From assembly GCA_021736965.1 (NCBI GenBank), contig JAIPEV010000001.1:1-30132 (forward strand): a DNA stretch of 30,132 nucleotides, read 5' to 3'. The DNA comes from Halanaerobiales bacterium. Its GTDB lineage: Bacteria > Bacillota > Halanaerobiia > Halanaerobiales > M55B127. The translations under genes and the position numbers were made by a program. Shown here piece after piece: positions 7 through 30,132 of the stretch; position 1 is the first letter of the stretch; every line of letters starts with the position of its first letter. Under the pieces are notes generated by a model. That model made no database searches, was not told where the DNA came from, and saw nothing but the letters and a program-made list of their open reading frames with translations.

Positions 7-22
7 TATTTGAGATTAAGAA
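7..22 (+). repeat. 16-bp direct repeat TATTTGAGATTAAGAA, copy 1 (copy 2 at 8910-8925)
   Basis: Exact match to 8910-8925, the leader between promoter P5 and the tRNA. Confidence 0.8.
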
Positions 23-3870: not shown

Positions 3871-4371
3871 ATGATAGTACACTTAAGCGAATTGGATAAG
3901 ATAGATTTAGATTTAGAATATGAACAATATGTTAATTATAAACCTAATGGCTTATGGTATAGCTTTGATAATCTTTGGATAGATTTATGCAAAGAAGAAA
4001 TGAGTTATAGAATATCCATTAATGATAATATTTTTCTACTGAAACTTAATGATAAAAATATATATAAAATATATGATTATGATAGCTTTATATATTTTGT
4101 AGAAACTTATATAGATAATTCTGCTGAGTTTGACTATGAATTTCAAGGAATAGATTGGCCTTTAGTTTGTGAAAAATATGATGGAATAGAAATTAAAAAT
4201 TATTTTACATTAAGAGATGACTACGGGCTAGATAGATTTAGCTGGTTTTCCTCTTTAGATGTCCCTAGTGGTTGTGTTTGGAATTTAAATATTGTAGAGA
4301 TACTTAAAAGATATTCATATAAAGAATGGGAAAATAAAAAAATATATAACAGAAAGGTAAGATATGAGTAA
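3871..4371 (+). CDS. conserved viral hypothetical protein (KPxGLWxS / IDW..V...YDGI / DVxSGCxW), possible ADP-ribosyltransferase-like fold
   Basis: Motifs are visible in the translation; the fold assignment is inference. Confidence 0.75.
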   Translation: MIVHLSELDKIDLDLEYEQYVNYKPNGLWYSFDNLWIDLCKEEMSYRISINDNIFLLKLNDKNIYKIYDYDSFIYFVETYIDNSAEFDYEFQGIDWPLVCEKYDGIEIKNYFTLRDDYGLDRFSWFSSLDVPSGCVWNLNIVEILKRYSYKEWENKKIYNRKVRYE

Positions 4372-4864
4372 CAGGCAAAGCTCTATTTTTATAGGTAAAT
4401 ATCCATTTGCAAAGTGTCCTATTTGTAAGAATAACTCAATTGTAAAAAATAAAAATAAATATGGTAATATTGAATTAGAGTGTCCCGAGTGTAAATTAGA
4501 AACTGAATATATAAATTCAAGGTTATTTGTTATTAAACATGATACAGATGTTAATTGGGAAATTAGTTTTTCTGGTTTTGAAGGTTGCCCCTATTGCAAT
4601 TTTCAAAGAAAATGGGAAACAGACAATAAAACATATATCGATGGTATTGTCTATTGGAGCACTTATTGTAAGTTAGATAGGGTACAGGCTAGGGAATACT
4701 TTGTAATTGGCTTAAAATTGAAATTAGATAGGTTTATGCTGATTGGAAACAAAGAGTATTTAACAGATGAAATAAAAGAAAAATTGTACAAAAAACATAG
4801 GAAACATAAAGAAATAGTAGACAATTTATTAAATGATATAAATATAAATTATGATTTTTTTTAA
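4364..4864 (+). CDS. zinc-ribbon protein
   Basis: CPIC...CPEC and CPYC motifs; overlaps the previous stop (coupled). Confidence 0.8.
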   Translation: MSNRQSSIFIGKYPFAKCPICKNNSIVKNKNKYGNIELECPECKLETEYINSRLFVIKHDTDVNWEISFSGFEGCPYCNFQRKWETDNKTYIDGIVYWSTYCKLDRVQAREYFVIGLKLKLDRFMLIGNKEYLTDEIKEKLYKKHRKHKEIVDNLLNDININYDFF

Positions 4865-7839: not shown

Positions 7840-8129
7840 TTGAAATAGATAATTTTAATAATTTTAAAGAAGGTGATTTGGTAAGATTTAAGGATGATCA
7901 CCATAATTATACTAGGATAGGAATTATTCTGAAAAAATATGATGATAAAATAGAATTAATAACAAAATTCTATGATAAACAAAGACATATGAAAATAGAA
8001 ATTAGAAGCAACAATAGCATAATTTCAATAATGTATTTGGCAGACTTTAGCTTTGCAATAACAGGGAAAATTATAGAGCATAACGCAAAGAAACAATTAG
8101 CAAACTTAATCGGTAATTATATAGAATAA
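7827..8129 (+). CDS. hypothetical protein, KOW/SH3-like N-terminus
   Basis: FKEGDLVRF...IGII pattern; AAAGGA RBS. Confidence 0.75.
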   Translation: MQQIIEIDNFNNFKEGDLVRFKDDHHNYTRIGIILKKYDDKIELITKFYDKQRHMKIEIRSNNSIISIMYLADFSFAITGKIIEHNAKKQLANLIGNYIE

Positions 8130-8142
8130 TAAAAGAATTATT

Positions 8143-8430
8143 ATGAGTATAAAGATAATAAAGAAAATTAGCGAAAAGGAAATTTTAAAAGCTATTGAAA
8201 ATAAAGATATTATAAGAAAAAGCGATGGTAAGCCGAATGAGTTTTGGAAAAGTTTAGTTGTTCTAGATATTATAGGATATGATATTGTGAGTATTAAAAA
8301 TTCTACAAAAGCTAATAAGCTAATTGAAAAAGAAAAAAAAGAAACAAAGAACTTTTTAATTATGTTAATAATTATTTTAAATAAAAAAGAAAGGAAACAA
8401 AATGTATTTAATTTTAATTCTAGAAAATAA
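8143..8430 (+). CDS. hypothetical protein (3' end possibly frameshifted at an A8 run)
   Basis: The 0-frame overlaps the next gene by 29 nt; a -1 shift at 8333-8340 gives a stop at 8382-8384. Confidence 0.65.
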   Translation: MSIKIIKKISEKEILKAIENKDIIRKSDGKPNEFWKSLVVLDIIGYDIVSIKNSTKANKLIEKEKKETKNFLIMLIIILNKKERKQNVFNFNSRK

Positions 8431-8626
8431 TGAGATTAATCCAGATTTTACAAAGGTAACAGATAGCTATGATAAAGCTTTTGAATACATGGTTAAAACT
8501 GCTAAAGATGATTTTGATTTAGAATTTGATACTAGTAAAAATTGTTTAGAAATTGAAAAAGAAATAAAGGAAGAGCTAGAATTTACTAAACAAAATATTA
8601 GTATCCATTATATCCAAAAGGTGTAA
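8402..8626 (+). CDS. small acidic hypothetical protein
   Basis: Starts at an exact leader copy (8389-8404); 17 D/E versus 9 K in 74 aa. Confidence 0.8.
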   Translation: MYLILILENNEINPDFTKVTDSYDKAFEYMVKTAKDDFDLEFDTSKNCLEIEKEIKEELEFTKQNISIHYIQKV

Positions 8627-8627
8627 T

Positions 8628-8876
8628 ATGGAAATTAAAATAAAATTAGAAAAAAAAGAAAACAAAGAAATTAATTTAATAAATCCAAATAAGACAACTT
8701 ATTCTTTGCTTTCTGAAAATGGCGATTTAATCGGCAATATGCACATTCTAAACAATGAAATTGCTTTATATGAAGCTGGAGGCAAACAAACATACTCTAT
8801 TAAGTTACAGGATATTTGGAATAGTTTTTGTGAAGCTTTAGGAAAGGAATATAATAAAATTGAAAAAAATACTTGA
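8628..8876 (+). CDS. hypothetical protein
   Basis: AAAAGG RBS; ends KNT* with the TGA inside the TTGACA of P5. Confidence 0.75.
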   Translation: MEIKIKLEKKENKEINLINPNKTTYSLLSENGDLIGNMHILNNEIALYEAGGKQTYSIKLQDIWNSFCEALGKEYNKIEKNT

Positions 8877-8901
8877 CATTCTCATATATATTTTTTAACT
8901 T
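8873..8901 (+). promoter_or_regulatory. sigma70-type promoter P5 (drives tRNA-Tyr)
   Basis: TTGACA 8873-8878, 17 nt, TAACTT 8896-8901. Confidence 0.85.
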
Positions 8902-8924
8902 GTATTAGATATTTGAGATTAAGA

Positions 8925-9007
8925 ACAAGTGTACTGAAATGGTTAAACAGGGCAGACTGTAAATTTGCTGACGAAAGTCTTTGAAGGTTCGAATCCTTCC
9001 ACTTGCA
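8925..9007 (+). tRNA. tRNA-Tyr (GUA), long variable arm, A1.C72 mismatch, no encoded CCA
   Basis: Acceptor ACAAGTG/CACTTGC plus A73; D arm CTG..GG..CAG; anticodon stem GCAGA/TTTGC with loop CT-GTA-AA; variable arm GAC-GAAA-GTC; T arm GAAGG-TTCGAAT-CCTTC. Confidence 0.92.
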
Positions 9008-9040
9008 CTGAGTGAATTTAATTAACTAAAAGGGGAAATT

Positions 9041-9574
9041 ATGAGTTATGCTGAATTTATCGATTGGCAAACAGAAGATTTTTTTGAAAATTGGGAAAAT
9101 GTAAGTATTAATGTTTTAGTAAAAATTTTTAAAGATAAGGATGATCCTAGAGCTGAGGAAATAGCTGAATATTTTGGTATAGATTTAGAGGATGGGTATG
9201 AGGAACTCGATGAGATTATTAATGATAGCTTTTTTCCAATGATAAACTTTATTTATCCATTAGAAACAAATACTTTACAAAAGGATGCTGTATATAAAAC
9301 TAGTTTAGAAACAAACTGTATTGTTTTATATAATAGAGTATTTGGTAAAAATTATTTATGTTTAGCTGCTGGTGGTATGGATTTTTCTCAAGACATAGGG
9401 CTAGCTTATGCTATTATGGATAAACGTATACCTTTAGAATTAGCTATAGACATTAACACACAGAAAAATTTAACTGTTAGAGGCGAAAATTGGGGCTTGT
9501 TAGAGTATAAGGTTATTCAAGCATTAGAAGCTGGTAAGAATAGAATTAATCAATTATTAAAAGAATGGAGCTAA
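9041..9574 (+). CDS. conserved phage hypothetical protein with acidic N-terminus (PMINFIYPL, LAAGGMDFS motifs)
   Basis: AAAAGGGG RBS. 20 D/E versus 4 K/R in the first 62 aa. Confidence 0.85.
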   Translation: MSYAEFIDWQTEDFFENWENVSINVLVKIFKDKDDPRAEEIAEYFGIDLEDGYEELDEIINDSFFPMINFIYPLETNTLQKDAVYKTSLETNCIVLYNRVFGKNYLCLAAGGMDFSQDIGLAYAIMDKRIPLELAIDINTQKNLTVRGENWGLLEYKVIQALEAGKNRINQLLKEWS

Positions 9575-9576
9575 TT

Positions 9577-10248
9577 ATGGATTATTTTGATTTTAAAAAA
9601 GTAGATGACTATTTAATAAGATTATCAAAAGACGAATTGGTTTCAAATCCAAGAGGATGGGCTACTTTAGGAACTTTGTGTATGTTTCACCCGGATTATA
9701 ATTTTCCTAATGAAGTTGATATTAACCCAAAAGATTTTTCTGGATTAGACGAAATTAAACAATACATTAAAAAAGAATTAAAGGGCGTATTTATTCATCC
9801 GATTTATTTATATGACCACACGGTTCTTTATATCAAGATAGGGGATTTTTCTGGAATGTTGCCCCAAGGACATAAAAGATGGGATTCTATGAAAGTTGGT
9901 TATATTTTTACTACTGTAGAAAGATTAAAAGACTATTGGCCGTATGATGGAAGCGAAAAGGAATTAAAAGGAAGAGCTGGAGAACTTTTTGAAAATGAAA
10001 TTGATGTATATAATAAATATGTCAATGGGGCAGGAATACAGTACTCTATTGAATATTTACCTACTAGTAAAAAGATTGATGTTTGCGGAGGCTTTTTTGA
10101 TAGGGAAAATGCTTATCATTCGGCTAAAGATTTTATTAAAGATCACAAAAAAATGATAAGCCTAAAAAAGAAACAAGCTGTTAAAAACTTTATTAAAAAA
10201 GATGTTTCTTTAGAAGATAGACAAAAACACTTGGAAAGGATTTCTTAA
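9577..10248 (+). CDS. conserved phage/ICE hypothetical protein (NPR.W..LG..CMFH..Y, YLYDH, WDS..VG, CGGF motifs)
   Basis: GGAG at 9567-9570 favours ATG 9577 (track start 9565). Family recognised from motif recall; function unknown. Confidence 0.8.
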   Translation: MDYFDFKKVDDYLIRLSKDELVSNPRGWATLGTLCMFHPDYNFPNEVDINPKDFSGLDEIKQYIKKELKGVFIHPIYLYDHTVLYIKIGDFSGMLPQGHKRWDSMKVGYIFTTVERLKDYWPYDGSEKELKGRAGELFENEIDVYNKYVNGAGIQYSIEYLPTSKKIDVCGGFFDRENAYHSAKDFIKDHKKMISLKKKQAVKNFIKKDVSLEDRQKHLERIS

Positions 10249-10532
10249 TGGATACTCTAATTAAATCTAAATTTGATTATAAAGATAAAGAGCTTGTTTT
10301 TAAAGCTTATGAAAGGTTCGGTTCTAAACTAAAATTAATCAAAGTATATGAAAAGGATACTAAATTTTATGTAACGTATAAAGATATTTCAAAAAGATTA
10401 GATAGTAAAGTAGATATTTTTAATTATGCTGGTTTTTTAAAATCTTATTTAGAAACTACTTTTAATAAGTATAGAAAGCCCGTTGTTGAAATAAATAAAA
10501 TTAATGCAGAAATTCCAACAGTTATTAATTAA
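10248..10532 (+). CDS. hypothetical protein
   Basis: TAATG coupling, GAAAGGA RBS. Confidence 0.75.
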   Translation: MDTLIKSKFDYKDKELVFKAYERFGSKLKLIKVYEKDTKFYVTYKDISKRLDSKVDIFNYAGFLKSYLETTFNKYRKPVVEINKINAEIPTVIN

Positions 10533-10917: not shown

Positions 10918-12503
10918 AACAAGAGACAATCCAAGAAATAAAAGATACGGTTAATATAGTAGATATTATTTCTGAATTTGTAGATTTAAAGCCTTCTGGA
11001 AGGAATTATAAGGGCTATTGCCCTGTACATAATGAAAGTGAGCCTTCCTTTACTGTAAGTCCTGATAAAGGTATTTGTAAATGTTTTGGTTGTGGATTTT
11101 CTGCTGATTCTATTGGCTTTTTAATGGAAATAGAAAATTTAAGCTATATTGATAGTTTAAAATATATTGCTGATTTTTATCAAATAGAATATGAAGAAAA
11201 TGAAGAATATTTTAAGCTATATAAAATTAATCAAAAAGTAGTAAATTATTTTCATGACCATTTATTACAAGCTCCAAAACTAATTAAGTATCTAAAAGAC
11301 AGGGGCTTATCTATTGAAATTATCAAAGAATTTAAATTAGGATATGCCCCTAAAAATGATTATTTATCTGAATTAAATATAGATAAAAAAGAAGCTAATG
11401 ATTTAGGTTTACTTTATGAGGATAGGCCCCGGTTTTATAATCGAATTATGTTTCCTATTTTCAATTCTAAGGGCAAACCAATTGGTTTTAATAGTAGACG
11501 TCTACCAAATAAAGAAAATGGTGCTAAATACCTAAATATATCAAATACTAAAATCTATAATAAAAGTAAATCTTTATATAATTTGTTTAGAGCAAAAAAG
11601 AATATTAAAAGAGAAGATTCTGCTTGCGTTGTTGAGGGCAATATGGACGTTATTAAGCTGTATTCATTAGGCATTAAAACAGTTGTAGGAACAAGCGGAA
11701 CTGCTATAACAAAAAAGCAGGGTAAGATTTTAACTCGATATACAGACACTGTTTTCTTATTATTAGATTCTGATGAAGCTGGTAGAGCAGCAACAATAAA
11801 AGCTGGATTTACTTTTATATCTTTGAATTTACATATTAAAGTTATGGAATTGCCTGAAGGCAAAGACCCCGATGATTTTTTTACTAGTAAAAACCAATTT
11901 ATAAATTATCAAAAAAATAAAAGTATTGATTTTATGAAATACTTTTTTTCAAAGCAAAGAATGAAAAACTTACAAGATAAGCAAGCGGTAATTAAAGAAT
12001 TAAAGCAAAGATTTAAAAATAATAATATTCAGAATGAATTAATTTTAAATGAGATTAGTGAACAATTAGGAATAAGTAAACAATCCTTACAGAATGAATT
12101 AATTGTTAATTCTAGTAAACCTAGTTTAGATGTTAATTATCGATATAAAATAGAGATGACTATTATTAAGTATGCAATTGAAAATTTAAAAAAGAGAAAA
12201 TTTGTATTTAATAAAATGAAACCTAAAATGTTTAGGATAAAAATAGCTAGAAAAATATTAAAAAATCTTCATGAATATAAAGGGGGGGATTTTTATATTT
12301 TTCTGGATGGAAATGTTGATAAAAAGCATATTAAATTTTTAAAAAGGAATACGTCTTGGGAATTTGAACAATGTATAAGAGTATTAAAAGAAGATTTTAC
12401 TAATAGAATGATTGAATTTTTACAAAAAAAATTATTAAAAGAAACAAATTCAGAGGAAAAAAAGAAACTTTTACAAAAAATTGTAAAATTAAAAAAGAAA
12501 TAG
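10914..12503 (+). CDS. dnaG: DNA primase, bacterial DnaG type
   Basis: CHC2 zinc finger (CPVHNESEPSF..CFGCG), RIMFPI, KYLN, TOPRIM motifs VVEGNMDV and LDSDEAG, LPEGKDPD, plus a helical C-terminal domain. Confidence 0.97.
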   Translation: MKQETIQEIKDTVNIVDIISEFVDLKPSGRNYKGYCPVHNESEPSFTVSPDKGICKCFGCGFSADSIGFLMEIENLSYIDSLKYIADFYQIEYEENEEYFKLYKINQKVVNYFHDHLLQAPKLIKYLKDRGLSIEIIKEFKLGYAPKNDYLSELNIDKKEANDLGLLYEDRPRFYNRIMFPIFNSKGKPIGFNSRRLPNKENGAKYLNISNTKIYNKSKSLYNLFRAKKNIKREDSACVVEGNMDVIKLYSLGIKTVVGTSGTAITKKQGKILTRYTDTVFLLLDSDEAGRAATIKAGFTFISLNLHIKVMELPEGKDPDDFFTSKNQFINYQKNKSIDFMKYFFSKQRMKNLQDKQAVIKELKQRFKNNNIQNELILNEISEQLGISKQSLQNELIVNSSKPSLDVNYRYKIEMTIIKYAIENLKKRKFVFNKMKPKMFRIKIARKILKNLHEYKGGDFYIFLDGNVDKKHIKFLKRNTSWEFEQCIRVLKEDFTNRMIEFLQKKLLKETNSEEKKKLLQKIVKLKKK

Positions 12504-27228: not shown

Positions 27229-27237
27229 AAAAATAGC

Positions 27238-27299: not shown

Positions 27300-27542
27300 A
27301 TGAGATTATTTGACACGATTAACTTCAAGTGTGATAATTGTGGACAACCCTTAGAAATACAGACTAAAGCTGGTGTTTATTCTTTAAATACTTATTCTAT
27401 TCCTCAACTAGCTTCAAAGCCAATTAAATATAAGTTATCCATGTTAGATGATATATGTGGGGAAAAAGTACACTGTTCCGCATGTGGTTATACTAATCAA
27501 ATTAATATAATATCTTCACCGTCAATAAAAATTAATAGTTAG
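27300..27542 (+). CDS. small zinc-ribbon protein
   Basis: CDNCG...CSACG. Confidence 0.75.
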   Translation: MRLFDTINFKCDNCGQPLEIQTKAGVYSLNTYSIPQLASKPIKYKLSMLDDICGEKVHCSACGYTNQINIISSPSIKINS

Positions 27543-27552
27543 AAGGAGTAAT

Positions 27553-28746
27553 ATGAAAAATGTAATTTATAACAGAGAAAATCAAAATGTACCAATTAAA
27601 ACATGGACAAATGATATTGAACAGGGTGCTTTAGAACAGGCTTTAAATATGTCTAGATTACCCTTTGTATTTAAACATATAGCATTAATGCCAGATGTTC
27701 ATAGAGGATATGGAGTTCCTATTGGTGGAGTGATGGCTACAAAAGATGTCATAATTCCTAATGCGGTAGGTGTAGATATTGGTTGTGGAATGATTGCACA
27801 ACAAACTAATTTAAAAGAAATTACAGAAGATACATTAAAGAAAATACTCGGTTTAATTAGACAGAATATACCAACAGGATTCAGTCGCCATAAAGAAACA
27901 CAAGATGAAAGCCATATGCCTAAAGTATTGGAGGATAAACATCTTCCAGTAATAGAAAAGGAATATGAAAGTGCTTTATATCAAATAGGTACATTGGGGG
28001 GCGGAAATCATTTTATTGAATTTCAGAAAGATGAAAATGACAATATATGGATAATGATACATTCTGGTAGTAGAAATTTAGGATACAAAGTTGCTAAATA
28101 CTATAATGAGAAAGCAATTGAATTAAATGAAATGTGGTATTCACAAGTACCAAAAAAATATGAATTAGCATTTTTACCACCAGATACAGATGAATATAGA
28201 GATTATATTAACGAAATGAAATATGCTTTAAAATTTGCATTATGTAATAGAAGATTAATGTTATTTAGAGTTATGGATATTATGAAAAATTGTGTTAGAA
28301 AATATGATAATAATAATTTTTCGTTTGTAAATGATTATATTAATATTCACCATAACTATGCTTCAATTGAAAATCATTTTGGAAAGAATGTATGGATACA
28401 TAGAAAAGGAGCCACATTAGCCAGAGAAGGTACTATTGGTATTATTCCTGGAAGTCAAGGCACCAGTTCTTATATAGTTGAGGGGAAAAGCAATAAACAA
28501 AGTTTTACCTCTTGTAGTCATGGTGCTGGTAGATTAATGAGTAGGACTAAAGCAAAAAATGATTTAGATTTATACGTAGAAAAAGGTAAATTAGAAGACA
28601 AAGGAATTCTTCATTCTATTAGAGGAAAAAAGGATTTAGATGAAGCTAGTGGTGCTTATAAAAATATAGATATTGTAATGGAAAACCAAAAGGATTTAGT
28701 TGATATCATTCATAAATTAGAACCAATAGCAGTAATAAAGGGGTAG
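27553..28746 (+). CDS. rtcB: RtcB-family RNA ligase (3'-phosphate/2',3'-cyclic phosphate to 5'-OH)
   Basis: MPDVH.G.G.PIG, VGVDIGCG, GTLGGGNHF.E, HSGSR, HHN, HRKGAT, IPGS.G, SCSHGAGR, DE...AYK. Confidence 0.97.
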   Translation: MKNVIYNRENQNVPIKTWTNDIEQGALEQALNMSRLPFVFKHIALMPDVHRGYGVPIGGVMATKDVIIPNAVGVDIGCGMIAQQTNLKEITEDTLKKILGLIRQNIPTGFSRHKETQDESHMPKVLEDKHLPVIEKEYESALYQIGTLGGGNHFIEFQKDENDNIWIMIHSGSRNLGYKVAKYYNEKAIELNEMWYSQVPKKYELAFLPPDTDEYRDYINEMKYALKFALCNRRLMLFRVMDIMKNCVRKYDNNNFSFVNDYINIHHNYASIENHFGKNVWIHRKGATLAREGTIGIIPGSQGTSSYIVEGKSNKQSFTSCSHGAGRLMSRTKAKNDLDLYVEKGKLEDKGILHSIRGKKDLDEASGAYKNIDIVMENQKDLVDIIHKLEPIAVIKG

Positions 28747-29396: not shown

Positions 29397-29547
29397 ACTT
29401 GAACATACCATTGATAAAATATTTTATTTTATATTATATCGAGTTATTTGTCCTCGTAAAAACTGGAAAATAAGTCAAATATTTAAAATAACTATAAGGT
29501 ATACTAGAGTTAAACGAATTATAAAAAATGGAGAATATTATGTTTAA
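29386..29547 (+). CDS. small basic hypothetical protein
   Basis: GGAGG RBS before ATG 29386/29389 (track start 29290 is probably too long). Confidence 0.55.
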   Translation: MMSKLEHTIDKIFYFILYRVICPRKNWKISQIFKITIRYTRVKRIIKNGEYYV

Positions 29548-30132
29548 AACATTTAAAAAATTAATTAAAAGATACGAAAATATTACCAGAGAAGAAATTG
29601 CTAGAAAAGTAGATAATTATTCTGATGAAAAAGGCAATTTAGAATGGTATATACTAAAAAGAGATTTAACTGGATTTGGTGATGCTGCAGACTGTATATT
29701 ATGTAAAGAGGTAAAAAAACAATGTGGACATTGTGCATGGATGAAATTAACCGAATCTAAATGTTTTGAAAAAGAAAATGGAAAAACATTTAACCAAATT
29801 GATGATGCTGAGACTATAGAAAGCCTTTATCAAGCTTATAAAGATAGAGCAAAATATATGAGAAAGGTGTTAGAGAAATATGCGAATAATCAATTACCAA
29901 AAATAGGTAAATGTCCCTCTTGCGGTTCTAAATTAGTAATATTAGAAGAATATATTAGTGCAAACTATTCAACCATTAACGAGGAAAGAAACTGGGAATA
30001 TCAAGTTCACTGTCAAAAATGCAAAGCACGTGGGCCAGTTAAAGAAGGAAAAGAAAATGCAATTAACGCATGGAATGCTCTTCTTAGAAAAGGTATCGGC
30101 CAAGATGGAACAGGTAATACTGCTTTAGTGGG
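29540..30132 (+). CDS. partial gene (runs off window): Cys-rich N-terminal domain fused to a Lar-like restriction-alleviation zinc ribbon
   Basis: Translated by hand from ATG 29540 with no stop to the window end; contains KCPSCGS...QVHCQKCKARGP......AINAWN. Confidence 0.7.
   Translation, partial: MFKTFKKLIKRYENITREEIARKVDNYSDEKGNLEWYILKRDLTGFGDAADCILCKEVKKQCGHCAWMKLTESKCFEKENGKTFNQIDDAETIESLYQAYKDRAKYMRKVLEKYANNQLPKIGKCPSCGSKLVILEEYISANYSTINEERNWEYQVHCQKCKARGPVKEGKENAINAWNALLRKGIGQDGTGNTALV

Follow-up and report, generated by a model that had tools for sequence, protein, structure and literature searches.

A probable phage tRNA-Tyr with an A1.C72 first pair is best read as an old resident of its promoter–leader slot carrying a later one-base change

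In Bacteria, the first pair of tRNA-Tyr is G1:C72 and has an identity function for TyrRS (PMC9976931), as an earlier note on this DNA had maintained. The tRNA-Tyr(GUA) gene considered here has A1.C72 instead, and its first nucleotide is also the last base of a 16-nt leader sequence that recurs on the same contig. This raises the questions of how the mismatch arose and whether the tRNA can be expected to work. The earlier note had read the mismatch as the by-product of a tRNA captured into a promoter–leader slot, and had proposed that the product is a poorly charged decoy or needs 5′ editing. Our data point elsewhere. We consider it probable that this is a working supplementary phage tRNA-Tyr(GUA) in the leader of an early transcription unit, that it is an old resident of its slot and that A1 is a derived one-base change.

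The window, by which we mean the whole stretch of 30,132 nucleotides that was analysed, is an entire contig (C139) of a MAG of 1.5 Mb and 63% completeness. Its GC content is 26%, against 30% in the bin, and its long open reading frames (ORFs) lie nearly all on the + strand. Among its products are those of a series of replication genes: a DnaG-type primase, a DnaB helicase, a second helicase, a clamp loader, a beta clamp and a family A polymerase. Megablast against INPHARED found no near relatives of the window, and in tblastn the DNA polymerase reaches at most 24% identity to known phages. Searches of IMG/VR with the 177-aa protein encoded after the tRNA, with the primase and with two tRNA patterns gave no match, and a DNA search across the family of the bin returned short chance matches only. 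The contig is probably a fragment of a novel virulent phage, and the bin is its putative host, assigned by binning alone. Such a deeply novel virulent lineage would be of more interest than the mismatch itself. Two ORFs, at 4364–4864 and 29528–30130, gave weak Lar-like (restriction alleviation) zinc-ribbon matches of 22.4 and 27.1 bits against a Pfam cut-off of 28.6.

Both the tRNA gene and its mismatch are real. ARAGORN calls a tRNA-Tyr(gta) at 8925–9008, and Rfam RF00005 matches 8925–9007 on the + strand with 52.3 bits against a gathering score of 29, flagging 1:72 as the lone non-canonical pair. In the ARAGORN drawing, A1 and C72 stand unpaired above six pairs, and ARAGORN and Rfam find this as the sole tRNA on the 30-kb contig. 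It is a class II tRNA with a variable region of 14 nt that includes a 3-bp stem, forming a long variable arm; the sequence of this region differs from that of the host-bin tRNA-Tyr. The anticodon is GUA, with G34 and U35, and the anticodon loop is the same as in the host-bin tRNA-Tyr. The discriminator A73 is at 9007 and is followed by CTG, with no encoded CCA. Both the host-bin tRNA-Tyr and that of the phage relative described below have G1:C72, and the host-bin gene encodes its CCA. ARAGORN, Rfam and the sequence itself thus confirm the combination of A1.C72, A73 and a CCA-less end that the earlier note had described. A minimum-free-energy fold of the precursor was dropped as evidence because it was no better than the folds of shuffled sequences (z −0.10) and contained no cloverleaf. 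In that fold, leader positions 8909–8915 pair with the acceptor 5′ strand at 8926–8932 (seven pairs, including G.U), which is probably chance.

The gene lies in a compact transcription unit, in the order sigma-70-type promoter (8873–8901), 23-nt generic leader, tRNA (8925–9007), 33-nt spacer with a ribosome-binding site and 177-aa gene. The predicted promoter (8872–8901, +) has a −35 TTGACA at 8873–8878, a 17-nt spacer and a −10-like TAACTT at 8896–8901; its activity is suggested by the sequence, in which TAACTT is a weak match to TATAAT, and a generic consensus scan did not list it. The stop codon of the upstream gene (8628–8876) falls inside the −35, at 8874–8876, and the same overlap is seen for the gene at 457–1245, whose TGA at 1243–1245 lies within the −35 of the promoter that follows it. 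The leader (8902–8924, +) spans the 23 nt from the −10 to the tRNA and holds all but the last base of the repeated 16-mer. The 3′ trailer (9008–9040, +) runs from CTG to the next gene, whose ribosome-binding site is at 9030–9035. No terminator-like site was found in 8400–10400 and, since none follows the tRNA, we infer a shared transcript for the tRNA and the gene at 9041–9574 (+). The function of the 177-aa product of this gene is unassigned; it is syntenic with a 185-aa gene of the relative L015 (8083–8640), with which it shares 38% identity, and it has 110 metagenomic homologues, none of them with a Pfam domain. Members of this protein family (P0122–P0230, at least 110 metagenomic phage proteins) have conserved GGMD-x-SQD and N-T-Q-K-N-L blocks. 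A tRNA that comes after a generic leader and before the ribosome-binding site of the following gene, at a place where the other cassettes have leader and ribosome-binding site alone, is aptly described as occupying a promoter–leader slot, the term used in the earlier note.

The repeated leader proved to be real but ordinary. The 16-mer at 8910–8925, which reaches tRNA position 1, recurs exactly at 7–22 (+), where it is followed by 15 bases (23–37) and then by the TTGACA of the next promoter, just as had been reported. No further copy with two or fewer mismatches occurs in the window or in the rest of the MAG. Taken alone, an exact 16-mer repeat is within chance at 26% GC, as a repeated 16-mer was present in 98.5% of 200 order-2 Markov simulations (mean 6.2). 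Its place among the promoters of the window is more informative. A regular-expression scan for the pattern CTTGAC-A/T-T, 16 nt, TA-NNN-T identified 11 near-identical sigma-70-type promoter modules in the window, at 37, 1241, 1647, 4873, 6881, 8872, 12504, 14824, 16571, 20341 and 27237. Each continues for 8 nt past the −10 and then through an A/T-rich leader to a ribosome-binding site of the GAAAGGA type, which an ATG follows, and the same design is found in the relatives L015, L017 and L018. The first of them, P37 (CTTGACAT, 16 nt, TAACTT; 37–66, +), would drive the gene at 88–411, and a 36-nt exact repeat is common to this module (from position 35) and to 1239–1274. The modules look homogenised inside each genome. 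At the fixed offset of 8 nt after the −10, eight of the ten other modules match the 16-mer at 10–12 of 16 positions, compared with an expectation of 5.3 of 16, and a match of at least 10 of 16 is reached by just 1.6% of window positions. Because the other modules match in the same register, the 16-mer is best seen as one variant of the generic leader of the phage.

The copy at 7–22 has a similarly plain reading. Positions 1–6 (TATTGT, +) correspond to the final six letters of the 8-nt sequence gaTATTGT found after the −10 in the modules at 37 and 1241, and they appear to be the tail of a promoter module truncated by the contig start. Judged from this, the 7–22 copy would most simply be the leader of a promoter lost beyond the contig start and arranged in tandem with the next promoter. 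Positions 1–40 are known from one contig end, as both other assemblies (Logan contigs) begin at 41, within the repeated promoter; a search for a leftward extension found no other MAG contig that overlaps the contig start or has the 16-mer.

Relatives of the phage indicate when the mismatch appeared. The primase identifies three of them, at 55–58% identity. One, L015, comes from a JGI metagenome and is the same as L016 (SRR12689534), an independent recovery that brings the number of samples to two; its primase is 58% identical to that of the window. L015 has, in order, a homologue of the gene at 8402–8626, the promoter, a tRNA-Tyr, homologues of the 177-aa gene and of a 227-aa gene, and the primase, with proteins 38–58% identical to those of the window. 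From the −35 region to just beyond the −10, the tRNA promoters differ at one position. The promoter occurs twice in L015, at 7910–7939 and 12234–12263, and the window copy at 8872–8901 shows one difference from these. As this conservation exceeds the needs of a bare sigma-70 promoter, the spacer may bind a regulator. The L015 tRNA-Tyr scores 50 bits with no non-canonical pair: it has G1:C72 and A73, its trailer begins with CTG and CCA is not encoded. It is preceded by a leader of 25 nt whose sequence is unlike the 23-nt leader of the window. The other two primase relatives, L017 and L018, fall outside this comparison, their contigs starting downstream of the tRNA region.

The two tRNAs are 70% identical, and all 20 tabulated stem pairs are kept in both, save the 1:72 pair of the window. 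Seven pairs (3:70, 4:69, 11:24, 12:23, 27:43, 29:41 and 51:63) show double-sided compensatory changes. Pairs kept through such changes indicate that the tRNA structure has been under selection in the window/L015 clade, although the changes may all predate A1 and so leave the working of the present allele unproven. A scan of five loci with more distant homologues of the 177-aa gene found no tRNA. At three more homologue loci, the upstream gene abuts the 177-aa homologue directly. It therefore appears that only the window/L015 clade has the insertion. The window and L015 share the promoter, the tRNA gene and the gene after it, yet L015 has G1:C72 and another leader, which argues that the capture is old and that A1 came later. 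On this comparison, the tRNA would have been in the slot before the window phage and L015 split, with G1:C72 ancestral and A1 a later, lineage-specific change, a polarity that rests on one relative lineage, the retained C72 and the bacterial G1:C72 rule. The proposal that the mismatch was a by-product of capture is contradicted by L015, an observation of the kind that the earlier note had itself named as counting against it, namely a relative with G at this position. Neither can a junction exactly at nucleotides 1/2 be deduced, as it had been, from a one-base extension of the match. A makes up 41.6% of the strand, so that the identity covering tRNA position 1 has a chance expectation of about 42% and is uninformative.

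The simplest origin of A1 is a G-to-A transition in a 26% GC genome. It is highly improbable that the A at 8925 reflects an error of sequencing or assembly, or a minor variant, since two further assemblies (runs SRR12088346 and SRR12088347) match the window exactly over 8840–9045, that is, across 206 bases around the site; a G at this position, which the earlier note had singled out as telling against its own reading, was looked for at assembly level, and all three assemblies have A. More attention is due to gene conversion or recombination between paralogous promoter–leader modules, in which the converted tract would have extended by one base into the tRNA while leaving the gene and its role otherwise unchanged. 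This would turn the junction at nucleotides 1/2 proposed in the earlier note into the trace of a later conversion instead of the first capture. The two leader copies are identical at 16 of 16 positions, compared with 9–12 of 16 for other modules in register, which suggests recent copying; the 36-nt exact repeat at 35 and 1239 has the look of concerted evolution, and the two promoters of L015, at 7910 and 12234, show no difference from the −35 to just beyond the −10. However, the one additional match is an A, on a strand rich in that base, the sequences 5′ of the 16-mer differ (1–6 compared with 8904–8909), the 7–22 copy is visible at a contig end only, and a plain G-to-A transition accounts for the same data. 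We regard conversion as possible but unlikely. By either route, what is left is an A.C opposition atop an otherwise intact, covarying cloverleaf.

On the preferred reading, in which the tRNA still works, RNase P would free its 5′ end, host nucleases would trim the 3′ trailer to A73 or C74, and host nucleotidyltransferases would add CCA. All 12 host-bin tRNAs encode CCA, and the bin has two genes of the tRNA nucleotidyltransferase family. One encodes a CCA/CC-adding-like protein of 416 aa (contig C23; L028, 670–1917, −). The other encodes a protein of 867 aa (G000, contig C79; L027, 718–3318, −) that resembles the long A-adding enzyme at 424 bits, below the model cut-off, and has CBS/DHH-like N-terminal parts. 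The pair suggests split CC- and A-adding activities in the bin. The CCA-less tRNA precursors of phage T4, which are clustered and dimeric, are matured by host RNase BN/Z and a CCA-adding enzyme. The present gene is like those of T4 in being a phage tRNA without CCA where host tRNA genes encode CCA, and hence in calling for host trimming and CCA addition. Unlike the T4 case, the tRNA is solitary on its contig, and no RNase Z equivalog above the cut-off was found in 13 genomes of the genus of the bin; here 3′ trimming is presumably exonucleolytic or carried out by a divergent enzyme of the metallo-beta-lactamase fold.

The tRNA would then still be produced and would accept tyrosine, probably with some loss of efficiency. 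The tabulated experimental determinants of TyrRS in bacteria are A73, G34 and U35 (PMC9976931), and all of these, together with the long variable arm, are present in the phage tRNA-Tyr. A functional cost of A1 is nevertheless plausible, given the TyrRS identity role of the 1:72 pair, the influence on RNase P cleavage of pre-tRNA-Tyr positions that include G+1 and C+72 (PMC11143913) and the access that GlnRS gains to some E. coli suppressor tRNAs when weakened 1:72 pairs make them glutamine acceptors (PMC9976931). The effect of A1 is probably modest. Consistent with this, the tRNA-Tyr of phage T5 (8341–8428, −) has a G1.U72 wobble in its ARAGORN drawing and is annotated in the T5 record as an efficient suppressor scaffold, and as it works with a 1:72 pair that is not G:C, a severe A1 defect is less likely. 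T5 tRNA-Tyr is in several respects the closest parallel: both are bacterial-type tRNA-Tyr(GUA) genes of phages with a phage promoter (strong in T5, predicted in the window), a variable arm unlike that of the host and a 1:72 pair other than G:C. They differ in that the T5 gene is one of a cluster with over 20 tRNAs, encodes CCA and has a wobble pair, whereas the window gene is solitary on its 30-kb contig, lacks CCA and has an A.C mismatch.

The acceptor end of the window gene has other counterparts. The tRNA-Ile(UAU) of Bacillus phage PHZU0001 (18879–18952) has the same A1.C72 and CCA-less end, together with U2.G71 (ARAGORN drawing), the isoacceptor being different. G.U first pairs occur in several other phage tRNAs, as found by a script in a small sample of loci. 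Because this script mis-registers tRNAs with two or more apparent mismatches, we relied on the drawings for T5 tRNA-Tyr and PHZU0001 tRNA-Ile. In the apicoplast of Plasmodium falciparum, tRNA-Tyr has A1-U72, and the loss of G1 has been attributed to AT mutational pressure (PMC9976931, citing PMC6310243). There, as in the window, a tRNA-Tyr of bacterial type encoded by a very AT-rich genome has lost G1; in the apicoplast, however, position 72 has also changed, the pair is restored and TyrRS no longer uses 1:72, whereas the window gene keeps C72 and has lost the pair. Imperfect acceptor ends are thus known already from phage-encoded tRNAs, and the mismatch is an ordinary phage tRNA oddity that calls for no new mechanism.

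Such a tRNA would top up tRNA-Tyr during infection, either to meet the tyrosine demand of the phage or to offset host defences that target tRNA. Tyr codons account for 5.55% of the codons in phage ORFs compared with 4.25% in the bin, a 1.3-fold excess that is the third-highest ratio among amino acids; provided that the bin is the host, this higher use agrees with the usual explanation by tRNA supply. A defence-related role is also conceivable. [quoted passage not shown] As the PtuAB cleavage site lies in the variable loop, a variable arm unlike that of the host could be relevant to evasion. A strong promoter of its own is a feature of the tRNA in T5-type counter-defence; in the window, the predicted promoter directly upstream of the gene has a consensus −35, a 17-nt spacer and TAACTT, and is conserved in L015.

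The window also encodes an RtcB RNA ligase (397 aa; 27553–28746, +; PF01139, 379 bits), placed downstream of the promoter module at 27237. When it is aligned with the RtcB of Pyrococcus horikoshii, the Asp/Cys and His motifs and the guanylylated His prove to be kept, and the phage RtcB is apparently active. Between the module and the ligase gene lies a small zinc-ribbon-like ORF (27300–27542). An RtcB gene beside tRNAs is a known arrangement for RNA repair in phages (PMC7824862). A solitary tRNA-Tyr with its own consensus promoter and a non-host variable arm, together with RtcB, therefore also fits an anti-PtuAB-type role combined with RNA repair. More broadly, the early genes seem to be arranged as near-identical promoter–leader cassettes, of which one has a tRNA in the place of the 5′ untranslated region and another would drive RtcB; cassettes with a tRNA and with RtcB hint that the integrity of tRNAs is contested in an uncultured host with an AT-rich genome.

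Three other readings give the mismatch itself a larger part. The A1.C72 tRNA could be impaired or repurposed: it might act as a poorly charged decoy for tRNA nucleases or for sensors of uncharged tRNA, be prone to mischarging, or come from a gene that has begun to decay. The 1:72 pair does matter to bacterial TyrRS and RNase P, and the phage RtcB suggests a tRNA-directed conflict. The classical A1 mutant of E. coli su+3 tRNA-Tyr behaves as a glutamine acceptor. Its lesion, like those of other suppressors with weak 1:72 pairs, is at the top of the acceptor stem, as in the window; these are, however, amber suppressors made in the laboratory, and their CUA anticodon has more in common with tRNA-Gln, whereas the window tRNA is natural and has GUA. 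The acceptance of glutamine when 1:72 is weakened has been described for some E. coli suppressors (PMC9976931). Against impairment stand the other stems and the tyrosine identity elements, which are all intact, the canonical G1:C72 tRNA of L015 in the same slot, which implies that the function in this lineage is ordinary decoding, and the finding that rescue of T5 from PtuAB required a decoding-competent tRNA-Tyr (PMC11555353). We consider impairment or repurposing improbable. A positive role for the mismatch would be a still longer shot: A1.C72 may have been selected because tyrosylation is kept while the tRNA escapes a host reader of the acceptor end, such as a defence nuclease or peptidyl-tRNA hydrolase, with RtcB as its partner in counter-defence. 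For tRNA-Gln and initiator tRNA-Met there is a known reason to have the 1:72 pair open; none is known for tRNA-Tyr.

The mismatch could also be repaired after transcription, with A1 taken off and replaced by a G templated by C72, as happens in some mitochondria. The hallmark of edited mitochondrial tRNAs is a mismatch among acceptor pairs 1–3, as is present here, and bacterial Thg1-like proteins repair 5′-truncated tRNAs in vitro; 5′ editing of this kind has, however, not been found in bacteria or archaea (PMC4284800). The mitochondria of Acanthamoeba and others likewise start from an encoded first-pair mismatch (PMC4284800), but in the present case no Thg1-like 3′–5′ polymerase was found in the contig, the bin or its genus, and the process is not known from bacteria or phages. 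The Thg1 family (PF04446) was found in none of 13 genomes of the genus of the bin, which include seven of high quality and the bin with the contig itself, in a search that detected the positive control Methanosarcina acetivorans. In the 40 window ORFs scanned, which belong to a phage known as a fragment, RtcB was the only tRNA-end-modifying Pfam domain. The suggested need for 5′ editing thus finds no enzyme to serve it, and we give this reading hardly any credence. A natural A1.C72 tRNA-Tyr and its G1:C72 sister allele in a related phage are a ready pair with which to test the demands of TyrRS, RNase P and EF-Tu on the first pair.

A degenerate tRNA pattern, searched in metagenome and GTDB contigs, yielded eight loci, none of them recognisable as a phage relative. 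Inspection covered the four metagenome loci; the four GTDB loci are on bacterial MAG contigs. In the metagenome loci, the tRNA-Tyr stands beside other tRNA genes (three Thr–Tyr pairs and one contig with four tRNAs). The last of these, JXWU01108141.1 (L020, 1120 nt), carries Pro, Tyr, Phe and Asp tRNAs; its tRNA-Tyr shares the variable-arm pattern of the scan, and the contig may be a phage tRNA cluster.
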